Assembly: GCA_046760145.1 (NCBI GenBank)
Contig: JBHIDO010000002.1
Location: forward strand, 1 to 58,086
Length of the DNA stretch: 58,086 nucleotides
Origin: Candidatus Aenigmatarchaeota archaeon
GTDB lineage: Archaea > Aenigmatarchaeota > Aenigmatarchaeia > Aenigmatarchaeales > Aenigmatarchaeaceae
Direction: 5' to 3'
Position numbers and translations under genes: made by a program. Under the pieces are notes generated by a model that was not told where the DNA came from, did no database searches, and saw nothing but the letters and a program-made list of their open reading frames with translations. Shown piece by piece: positions 6,149 through 43,672 of this stretch (positions are counted from its first letter, which is position 1; the number at the start of each line of letters is the position of its first letter).

Positions 6149-6822
6149 AAAGGAGGAACAAAAATGATTAATAAAGATGTAGCAGAATTGGTTGGCGTAC
6201 ATCTGGGAGATGGACGTATGTCCCATTATTTTGCTAGATCTGAGGATATCTTTAGATTTGAAATTTTGTTCACAGGAGATTGGGACAAAGACTCTAGATA
6301 TTATAAAGAAGTTTTACAACCCATAGTAATTAGAAACTTTGGAATTAAAGGTCATATAAAACATAGAAGAGACGATGATACAGTTAGATACGTGATTAAA
6401 AGCAAGAAACTTGCAACGTTTTTTGTACGACTTGAAATACCTGTTGGGAAAAAAGCAGAGATATGTAAAATACCCTCTGAAGTAATTTGTGACATAGATT
6501 TATCTATCGCTTGTATTAGAGGTATTTTCAATAGTGACGGCAGTATTTATAGAAGATATAATAAACGTTATAAAAATACGCCTGAAGACTATTACAAATA
6601 TGCAGTTGTACAGTTCAAAATGAAAAGCAAAGATTTGATTAAGCAAATAAAAGACGTTTTGAATAGCCTCCATATTAGAACAACTAAAATAAGCAGAAAC
6701 TGTAATAGTTGGGTATTAAGAATAACGCATCAGAAATCTATTGACATCTTTTTTGATTTATTTAAAATAAACCACAATTATCACTTGAAAAGGTATAATG
6801 ATATTCGTTCCTCTTTGCCAAA
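6149..6822 (+). mobile_element. ORF-bearing bulge-helix-bulge (BHB) intron of tRNA-Lys(CUU)
   Basis: A 10-bp intron helix pairs AAGGAGGAAC (6150-6159) with GTTCCTCTTT (6807-6816). A 4-bp central helix pairs TGGT (6143-6146) with GCCA (6817-6820). It is flanked by 3-nt bulges AG|A (6147-6149) and AA|A (6821-6823). The exon-side outer helix is weak. Confidence 0.8.
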
Positions 6823-6838
6823 AGCAACTGGCTCTTAA
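6164..6838 (+). CDS. Double-motif LAGLIDADG homing endonuclease-like protein (intron-encoded)
   Basis: Motif 1 is LVGVHLGDGRM and motif 2 is CIRGIFNSDGSIY. A GGAGG SD lies 8 nt upstream of the ATG. The last 5 codons and the TAA lie in the 3' exon; the TAA is anticodon-loop positions 36-38. Confidence 0.85.
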   Translation: MINKDVAELVGVHLGDGRMSHYFARSEDIFRFEILFTGDWDKDSRYYKEVLQPIVIRNFGIKGHIKHRRDDDTVRYVIKSKKLATFFVRLEIPVGKKAEICKIPSEVICDIDLSIACIRGIFNSDGSIYRRYNKRYKNTPEDYYKYAVVQFKMKSKDLIKQIKDVLNSLHIRTTKISRNCNSWVLRITHQKSIDIFFDLFKINHNYHLKRYNDIRSSLPKATGS

Positions 6839-6909
6839 CCAGTAGGTCGCGGGTTCGAATCCCGTTGGGCCCACCAATCTTTTTAAAGAACATTCAACAT
6901 AATTTAGTT

Positions 6910-33213: not shown

Positions 33214-33222
33214 CTAATCACA

Positions 33223-33376
33223 TGGTGGGCCCGACGGGATTCGAACCCGCGACTCCCGGGTTTAAAGACCGAGACTAACAGTCTGCAGGTTTTCTTCCTG
33301 TCATTGCTAAAAGCTCAACATGCTTTTATCCTGACGGATAAAAGCCCGGTACTCTACCAGACTGAGTTACGGGCCC
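33223..33376 (-). tRNA. tRNA-Lys (probably UUU) with a 77-nt insertion in the anticodon loop; splice junctions unresolved; CCA encoded
   Basis: GGGCCCG TA ACTC AGTCTGGTA GAGT A CCGGG CTTTTA [77 nt] A CCCGG GAGTC GCGGG TTCGAAT CCCGT CGGGCCC A CCA. All four arms pair perfectly. Confidence 0.7.
33262..33338 (-). other. Intervening sequence of tRNA-Lys(UUU), drawn at 37/38; no BHB found by eye
   Basis: It begins with a perfect 10-bp hairpin GCTTTTATCC-GTCA-GGATAAAAGC (33322-33345) that buries the anticodon loop. It ends in ...CTCGGTCTTTAA. Confidence 0.5.
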
Positions 33377-33624
33377 CTTGTAATTCTTTTTAATTTATCA
33401 AATTTATCTTTTGTTAAATCTATCCATAATCCAAAACTTCCATTAATATCCGATATTTCTAACATTTTCTTTCTCTTATCTTTATGAAGTTCTATTACTA
33501 CTTCTCTACTTCTTAGTTCTAAAGATAATTCCTTTCCTGCTAAATTTCTTGGTTGATCTAACCGAATATCTTTCCATTCGATTAATCTTTGTGCAACACC
33601 CTTGTCTAATTTCAATATTATCAT
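33367..33624 (-). CDS. 85-aa hypothetical protein, possible decayed single-motif LAGLIDADG remnant
   Basis: MLEISDINGSFGLWI resembles a LAGLIDADG motif with Asn replacing the second acidic residue. The start is trimmed to 33624 (upstream is tRNA-Asp). The TAA stop is positions 8-10 of tRNA-Lys(UUU). Confidence 0.4.
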   Translation of the reverse strand: MIILKLDKGVAQRLIEWKDIRLDQPRNLAGKELSLELRSREVVIELHKDKRKKMLEISDINGSFGLWIDLTKDKFDKLKRITRGP

Positions 33625-33635
33625 ATTATCACAGG

Positions 33636-33709
33636 CGCCCGAGTGGGGATTTGAACCCCAGTCACAAGCTCGACAGGCTCGCATACTAACCAGACTATAC
33701 TACCCGGGC
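33636..33709 (-). tRNA. tRNA-Asp(GUC), no intron, only CC encoded after the discriminator
   Basis: GCCCGGG TA GTAT AGTCTGGTTA GTAT G CGAGC CTGTCGA GCTTG TGAC TGGGG TTCAAAT CCCCA CTCGGGC G. Confidence 0.95.
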
Positions 33710-43560: not shown

Positions 43561-43672
43561 TCCCGTCTGGGAGATTCGAACTCCCGACCTACCGGTTTCT
43601 GAGCAACTGCTAAATGAGCAATACAAATGTAAAGCTCTACAGCCGGTCGCTCTACCACTGAGCTAAGACGGG
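43561..43672 (-). tRNA. tRNA-Tyr(GUA) with one 40-nt intron at 37/38; no encoded CCA
   Basis: CCCGTCT TA GCTC AGTGGTA GAGC G ACCGG CTGTAG [40 nt] A CCGGT AGGTC GGGAG TTCGAAT CTCCC AGACGGG A. It has the C1-G72 pair typical of archaeal tRNA-Tyr. Confidence 0.9.
43597..43636 (-). other. tRNA-Tyr intron (40 nt, 37/38)
   Basis: A near-canonical BHB. CTG of 32-34 pairs with CAG, with one T-T mismatch in the 4-bp helix. The bulges are AG|A and AA|A. Confidence 0.7.

Follow-up and report, generated by a model that had tools for sequence, protein, structure and literature searches.

Two probable abutting introns, with a likely fixed order of removal, in the anticodon loop of a DPANN tRNA-Lys(UUU) gene

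How can a tRNA be spliced when the two sides of its only obvious splice junction refuse to pair? This question is raised by the tRNA-Lys(UUU) gene at 33376..33223 on the minus strand of the window, the whole 58,086-nt stretch of DNA analysed here (29% G+C), in which a 77-nt insert follows tRNA position 37. When introns were allowed, ARAGORN called this gene tRNA-Lys(ttt) and put an intron of 77 nt behind position 37; in its default mode, it did not detect the gene. The Rfam tRNA model matched the minus strand at 33226-33376 with 56.1 bits and placed a 78-nt insertion in the anticodon loop. Both programs thus bear out the original prediction of a tRNA gene carrying a 77-nt insert in this loop. 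The 5' exon (positions 1-37, GGGCCCG...CCGGG CUUUUA) occupies 33339..33376 and the 3' exon (positions 38-73, A CCCGG GAGUC GCGGG UUCGAAU CCCGU CGGGCCC A) occupies 33226..33261, both on the minus strand and both delimited by the Rfam match, ARAGORN with introns allowed and inspection of the sequence; a genomically encoded CCA, seen in the sequence itself, follows at 33223..33225 (minus strand). The acceptor, D, anticodon and T stems are all intact, which agrees with the prediction that the gene looks functional. The stems had been described as perfect throughout, and this needs one correction, namely a G-U pair reported by ARAGORN in the T stem. CUUU is present at both exon/insert junctions, and GCUUUUA has a second copy inside the insert (33314..33308).

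Introns, one to three per gene, are also present in several other tRNA genes of the window. In tRNA-Tyr(GUA) (43561-43672, minus strand), the 40-nt intron forms a relaxed bulge-helix-bulge (BHB) motif only, either CUG/CAG with a U-U mismatch or a version with a 2-nt bulge, which suggests that the endonuclease of this organism tolerates imperfect motifs. The 3' portion of a tRNA-Lys(CUU), from the anticodon arm to the CCA, is located at 6817-6865 on the plus strand and scores as a partial tRNA.

The 4-bp central helix of a BHB includes the first two bases of the anticodon (PMC4090602, a review). For a single intron at 37/38, this helix must join positions 32-35 to the four intron bases that precede the last two. 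In the present gene, CUUU (positions 32-35) would face CUUU, giving 0 of 4 central pairs, and the earlier claim that a canonical single BHB is impossible at 37/38 therefore holds. The anticodon-masking hairpin of 10 bp that had been described is likewise present. In this hairpin, here referred to as helix X (33345..33322, minus strand; identified by folding and checked in the sequence), G31-A37 and the first three intron bases (GCUUUUAUCC) are paired with GGAUAAAAGC across a GUCA loop. Helix X is a perfect 10-bp helix and is part of the MFE fold; it masks the 5' splice site as well as the anticodon loop, and it competes with the outer BHB described below. Its 3' strand, GAUAAAAGC, is invariant across all homologues. 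The hairpin at the 3' end of the insert can adopt two alternative registers, AGACUG/CGGUCU or AGACU/AGUCU.

We searched the full 154-nt precursor for all helices of 4 bp that have a 3-nt bulge at each end, on opposite strands, following the geometry of archaeal pre-tRNAs, and placed each cut after the second bulge base, a rule that was checked on covarying introns. CCGG/UCGG had been the sole arrangement of 4 bp with 3-nt bulges to be noticed at first, but the systematic scan yielded two better ones. Two motifs have the correct 3' cut (AA|A before C39): motif (b), which removes 30 nt, and motif (a), which removes 59 nt and is taken up again below. Motif (b) reads GAAG-AAA-ACC...GGU-CUUU-AAA. 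GAAG (33297..33294) and CUUU (33267..33264) form 4 of 4 pairs, and each strand has an AA|A bulge; the inner helix (ACC/GGU), on one side, has 3 bp, and the 3' bulge, on the other, abuts C39 of the anticodon stem. The outer helix of (b) is the anticodon stem, which is non-contiguous on the 5' strand and contributes one contiguous base pair (G:C39), the 5' strand of the stem being parted from GAAG by helix X and by a further hairpin, the K-hairpin. The segment removed, intron b, is the 30-nt sequence AACCUG...GUCUUUAA (33262..33291, minus strand), located by the BHB scan and forming the first step of the only route that was found.

Removal of the remaining 47 nt (UCCGUC...GGAAGAA; 33292..33338, minus strand), an outer intron at 37/38, forms the second step of this route. 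The outer BHB reads CUUU-UAU-CCGUCA...UGACAG-GAAG-AAA and has 4 of 4 central pairs between CUUU(32-35) and GAAG, with UA|U and AA|A as its bulges and the 5-bp anticodon stem as its outer helix; the inner helix, CCGUCA/UGACAG, has 5 of 6 pairs and one C-A mismatch. This motif is complete only once intron b is gone, as it needs GAAG-AA|A directly before C39. The two motifs share the tetranucleotide GAAG (33294..33297, minus strand), which is invariant in the alignment: in the central helix of b it forms the 5' strand, and in that of the outer intron the 3' strand. Both are relaxed hBHBh' forms, and such forms are acceptable to broad-specificity enzymes only.

An exhaustive search of one-step and two-step routes under fixed criteria returned exactly one, the loss of 30 nt and then of 47 nt, with CUUUUAA as the loop of the product. 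The spliced product (CCGGG-CUUUUAA-CCCGG in the anticodon arm) is a canonical cloverleaf with a 7-nt anticodon loop, called by ARAGORN as tRNA-Lys(ttt) of 77 nt including the CCA. Any route at all was obtained in 29 of 3000 dinucleotide-preserving shuffles of the insert (~1%), and the resulting p of ~0.01 is modest, the route criteria having been chosen after the sequence had been inspected. The original prediction found no BHB and held the splicing route to be unexplained. Neither statement is supported, since the search gives a pair of standard BHBs whose successive use would take out the entire insert precisely at 37/38, and since the same architecture occurs in homologues. It had also been foreseen that a BHB identified by a folding search would remove the puzzle. 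This is essentially what happened, but the solution consists of two abutting introns, not one.

We consider it probable, judging from the sequence, that the 77-nt insert consists of two protein-spliced (BHB) introns placed end to end, with a zero-length exon between them, and that these are removed in a fixed order. Helix X would sequester the CUUU of the anticodon loop in the primary transcript, and GAAG of the outer intron would therefore pair with the CUUU at the insert's 3' end. This pairing would form the b BHB with its 3' bulge against the anticodon stem; the splicing endonuclease would then remove the 30-nt intron b, and the ligase would join ...GGAAGAA to ACCCGG. GAAG would now precede AA|A-CCCGG, helix X would open and GAAG would pair with CUUU 32-35, so forming the canonical 37/38 BHB from which the 47-nt outer intron would be excised. 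The mature anticodon loop would be CUUUUAA, that of tRNA-Lys(UUU). Intron b would have to go first because GAAG serves both motifs, and the order would be obligatory because removal of the outer intron first would leave b with CUUU facing CUUU, a dead end. It is plausible that helix X enforces this order by hiding CUUU(32-35) and leaving GAAG free. The sequences show the motifs, the uniqueness of the route, its recurrence in homologues and the correct product; the actual cleavage, its order in vivo, any religation of the intermediate and the part of helix X in imposing the order are inferred.

A metagenome scan with the 5' exon returned three true homologues of the architecture seen in the window (L014, L015 and L016). 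All of them carry helix X and an invariant core, GAUAAAAGCAUGUUGAGC-variable hairpin-GC(U/A)AUGACAGG(G)AAGA, and the sequence between GAAG-NN| and A38 differs. The route search gave the same unique two-step route in each, with both central helices 4/4 in L014; in L015 and L016, it was obtained only when a 3/4 central helix was allowed for b. These latter two also contain a better-paired BHB register (AGAU/AUCU), shifted by 2 nt at either end, whose product would be impossible; this register may be a decoy or a sign of a composite b intron. The outer BHB recurs in all three with the inner helix CCUG/CAGG. A relative reconstructed from metagenomic contigs has CUG/CAG in place of the CCUG/CAGG of L014, and this paired indel supports the inner helix of the outer BHB.

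That relative came from Logan contigs of vent and sediment metagenomes, which were aligned to the window and L014. In the contigs of these relatives, the outer-intron core is constant, and the element that follows GAAGAA| is hypervariable (12, 13, 13, 14, 37 and >30 nt). Its versions include AGGGUACUUCAC, AGGUAACCUUCAA, AACUAACUCUUCAA and GCUCUGCCUUCAG, plus a longer one with a hairpin of its own. The readable 3' ends of the variable elements are all CUUC, CUUU or CUAC followed by NN|A, and CUUC and CUUU are complements of GAAG. This pattern can be read as a conserved, resident outer intron whose 3' cleavage site would be the precise seat of a second intron that is independent and changes fast. 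The contigs that share the architecture belong to several distinct organisms, ranging from 29 to 56% G+C, and their exons show compensatory changes.

A scan of a genome collection with the 3' exon returned eight DPANN (Nanobdellati) MAGs, L001 and L006-L012, in which the same tRNA with near-identical exons has reached a different solution. In their tRNA-Lys(UUU) genes, an intron of 21 nt with a perfect BHB interrupts 30/31; next come a micro-exon, GCUUUUA(A), and a 37/38 intron that ends in GAAG-NN|A as in the window. The central helix of the 30/31 intron covaries among them (CACC/GGUG vs CGCC/GGCG). These genes also require two ordered splices in the anticodon arm (for example, L001:2530-2680), but helix X and the core of the outer intron were not seen there. 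The 5' end of their first intron, GCUCUUAA, mimics the anticodon loop of Lys(CUU). A comparable micro-exon model for the window, with the second GCUUUUA (33314..33308) as the true anticodon loop, was rejected, as no BHB supports an intron at 30/31-35/36 and as the GCUUUUA segment is merely the variable hairpin in L014-L016.

The energies of the two conformers differ. In the window, the b-BHB conformer lies 3.7 kcal/mol above the MFE; in L014, it belongs to the MFE fold. For the covarying BHBs of L001 and L008, the distance from the MFE is about 3 kcal/mol, and the value for b in the window is in that range. The outer BHB conformer lies 7.0 kcal/mol above the MFE in the window and 5.5-6 kcal/mol above it in the homologues. 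The outer BHB is this costly because it has a competitor in helix X or, in the window, in a slipped register, and the second step would therefore require the opening of helix X.

Further elements were observed around the locus and in its relatives. At L014:2252-2318, and at the same place in L015 and L016, an extra insert of 38-68 nt ("alpha") lies within the loop of helix X. It carries a BHB-like motif, UGCG-AAC-GCCG.../...CGGC-CGCU-AUC, with covariation between GCCG/CGGC and GCUG/CAGC and with helix X as the outer helix; in relatives, alpha is shorter or is replaced by the 6-nt loop UGCUAG. It may be a third, intron-in-intron element. L015 also has a 42-nt T-loop intron (L015:3250-3291) that is precisely missing from contigs of close relatives in two metagenomes, and this is an intron presence/absence polymorphism. 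In the vent metagenome runs X1-X4, depth over the exons of window positions 33222-33376 is 10-20x higher than over the intron; many other organisms in these runs share the Lys exons with different introns or none, providing a natural series of intron states. A search for sequencing runs that contain the locus of the window, L014 or L015 returned DNA metagenomes exclusively. Comparison of the locus with L014 and L015 revealed no conserved neighbouring proteins, the order tRNA-Asp-tRNA-Lys alone being shared; in the window, tRNA-Asp lies directly upstream (33367-33709, minus strand). An ORF of 85-105 aa between the two tRNA genes, which overlaps tRNA-Asp in its 3' part and tRNA-Lys in its first 10 nt, occurs in the window and in neither L014 nor L015. 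A scan of viral contigs with the intron core gave one match, a chance one inside a coding region.

Four other explanations of the insert were weighed. According to the one that survives best, which we nevertheless find distinctly unlikely, there is a single 77-nt intron and no religated intermediate: a broad (alpha-beta)2 or epsilon2 endonuclease would cut independent half-motifs, with CUUU/GAAG paired for the 5' cut and GAAG/CUUU (or AAAG/CUUU) paired for the 3' cut, and with the tRNA body holding the exons together for one ligation. In some archaea, 5' and 3' splice sites can indeed exist as independent hBH and HBh' entities (PMC4090602), and DPANN endonucleases are described as broad in specificity in passages of two papers (PMC3239211, PMC5829648). 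As this explanation needs the same two conformers, all of the route-search evidence fits it equally well. However, both conformers present the shared middle site GAAGAA|A, so that three cuts would be expected anyway, and an outer BHB formed with no prior religation would lack a 3' bulge and an unbroken outer helix. It is a variant of the two-intron explanation, not a different structure. We also tried a model in which both half-sites are used at once in one conformer and rejected it, reasoning from the order of the pairs that a pseudoknot would be needed.

Motif (a) offers another way out of the insert, though we give it very little credence. It reads AAAG-CAU-GUUGAG...CUCGGU-CUUU-AAA, with a 4/4 central helix, a 6-bp inner helix (three of the pairs G-U) and the same 3' cut as (b), and its removal (59 nt, 33320..33262) would leave an 18-nt mini-intron, UCCGUCAGGAUAAAAGCA, at 37/38. 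This leftover does have CUUU/AAAG and a proper CA|A 3' bulge, but its 5' splice site lies inside the perfect helix X, where UAU faces AUA and no bulge is formed. The route fails the search because that splice site stays in a perfect helix. In addition, conformer (a) lies 9.8 kcal/mol above the MFE, and its partner strand CUCGGU is absent from all homologues, in which GUUGAG is conserved as part of the K-turn-like motif described below. The (a) route was rejected on these grounds: the failure of the search, the energy and the missing partner.

That the gene is a decaying, unspliceable pseudogene, with another gene supplying tRNA-Lys(UUU), is also highly improbable. The outer BHB is imperfect and energetically disfavoured, as would suit decay. 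Against this, all four stems are intact; the architecture and the invariant intron core are kept in several organisms whose contigs range from 29 to 56% G+C, with compensatory changes in the exons; and the two-step route is preserved in each of the homologues L014-L016, allowing for the 3/4 central helix of b in L015 and L016.

Splicing within the CUUU direct repeat (31/32 to 35/36), which would give the loop CUUUAAA with a UUA anticodon reading UAA and had made the spliced anticodon seem ambiguous, is formally possible through the repeat and can draw on the CCGG/UCGG arrangement with its 3-nt bulges, but this product is structurally unsupported and biologically implausible, and we hold it to be next to impossible: CCGG/UCGG lacks flanking helices; the route search found nothing leading to CUUUAAA; of the 45 long ORFs of the window, 25 end in TAA, the most frequent stop; AAA makes up 8.9% of the codons of these ORFs and requires a UUU tRNA; the gene shares its T arm exactly, and its acceptor stem almost exactly, with tRNA-Lys(CUU) of the window; and the corresponding 7-mers of homologues, CUUCACA and CUACAGA, are kept as complements of GAAG and not as an anticodon loop.

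Returning to the two-intron explanation, we consider what the conserved core of the outer intron might be. Its elements follow the order: antisense to the anticodon loop, UUGA, variable hairpin, (A/U)AUGA. The part from UUGA onwards (33298..33318, minus strand) consists of UUGA, the hairpin GC-UUUUA-GC and AAU-GA-CAG, with invariant flanks and a covarying hairpin. The flanks UUGA and (A/U)AU-GA-CA do not change among the homologues, and the hairpin is free to vary (UUUUA, GCGCGCACGCGC or UGCGCAAGCA). This looks like a K-turn, or more precisely a box D'/C'-like motif: a GA lies directly 5' of the stem, and the other strand has the stem, a 3-nt NRU loop and a GA. It has the potential for tandem G-A/A-G pairs; the consensus G6:C1 pair is replaced by A:U, and the order is D' then C', which is that of box C/D sRNAs. 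In one relative, the C'-like position is occupied by a canonical GUGAUGA.

Directly upstream of this K-turn-like motif is the 10-nt antisense to G31-A37, namely the 3' strand of helix X. The 10-bp duplex starts at N+4, and N+5, which would mark the methylation target, pairs with C32 in the window as well as in L014-L016; a vent relative with a spacer shortened by 2 nt has U34 at N+5. As N+5 thus falls on C32 or on U34 among relatives, the target is uncertain. Neither a terminal box C (RUGAUGA) nor a terminal box D (CUGA) is present at the ends of the 77-nt insert or across the circularised intron junction, and an Rfam search of the locus gave no match to an sRNA family. A guide or L7Ae-binding function of the core is possible, and we would put it slightly below an even chance. 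A more specific proposal, which we regard as doubtful, would combine several features of the locus: the 47-nt outer intron would be a one-K-turn ("half-mer") box C'/D' guide RNP that 2'-O-methylates the anticodon loop of its own pre-tRNA through its 10-nt antisense, at C32 if the N+5 rule applies; helix X would be the timer that forces b first; and the second intron would have arisen from repeated insertion at the cleavage site of the resident intron.

In the genome studied here, and in this genome only, the loop of the K-hairpin (33306-33314, minus strand) repeats the anticodon-loop sequence, GCUUUUAGC. UAAAAGC of helix X is complementary to the GCUUUUA copy (33314..33308), and pairing of the two enters the MFE fold once intron b is removed. 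The repeat may be a decoy that frees the real anticodon loop and helps to displace helix X.

Nested and ordered multiple-intron pre-tRNAs of Thermoproteales were reportedly described by Sugahara et al. in 2007/2008. Nested introns in which the last BHB is formed only after the others have been removed are a known arrangement in some archaea (PMC3728597), and the tRNA genes of Crenarchaeota (Thermoproteales) resemble the present gene in having at least two BHB introns per gene, a last BHB that needs prior removal, and protein enzymes. The present gene differs in that its introns would abut, with a zero-length exon, in that GAAG serves both central helices, and in its lineage, DPANN. The 5' side of the b motif is built from intron and not from exon, because GAAG is shared by the two BHBs. 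Nested, ordered tRNA introns being already known, abutting introns that share GAAG would be a new form of them.

Box C/D guides inside tRNA introns are known from the pre-tRNA-Trp of Euryarchaeota (PMC4090602), and the 66-nt intron within Nanoarchaeum equitans elongator tRNA-Met also carries a box C/D guide (PMC3491384). Like these introns, the outer intron has an antisense to the anticodon region of its own tRNA, here beside a K-turn-like box motif, and guide pairing and the BHB would be mutually exclusive folds. Unlike them, it has one K-turn-like motif (D'/C'), no terminal C/D boxes, and degenerate boxes (UUGA; AAUGACA); pairing starts from N+4; N+5 falls on C32 and not on 34 or 39; and the tRNA is Lys(UUU). 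Its likeness to a guide is read from the nucleotide sequence.

An apparently unspliceable tRNA gene thereby becomes an ordinary, testable case. Gene finders and BHB predictors that expect one intron per site will miscall such genes. If new BHB introns enter where an endonuclease site is already in place, one would expect just what close relatives show, namely unrelated elements at the same cleavage site. The guide-like core adds tRNA-Lys(UUU) to the few tRNAs (Trp, and Met of N. equitans) whose introns resemble modification guides, and a guide role would explain why the intron has been retained in reduced DPANN genomes. If the proposal of a half-mer guide were true, this locus would reveal the reason for keeping such introns as well as the point of entry of new BHB introns.
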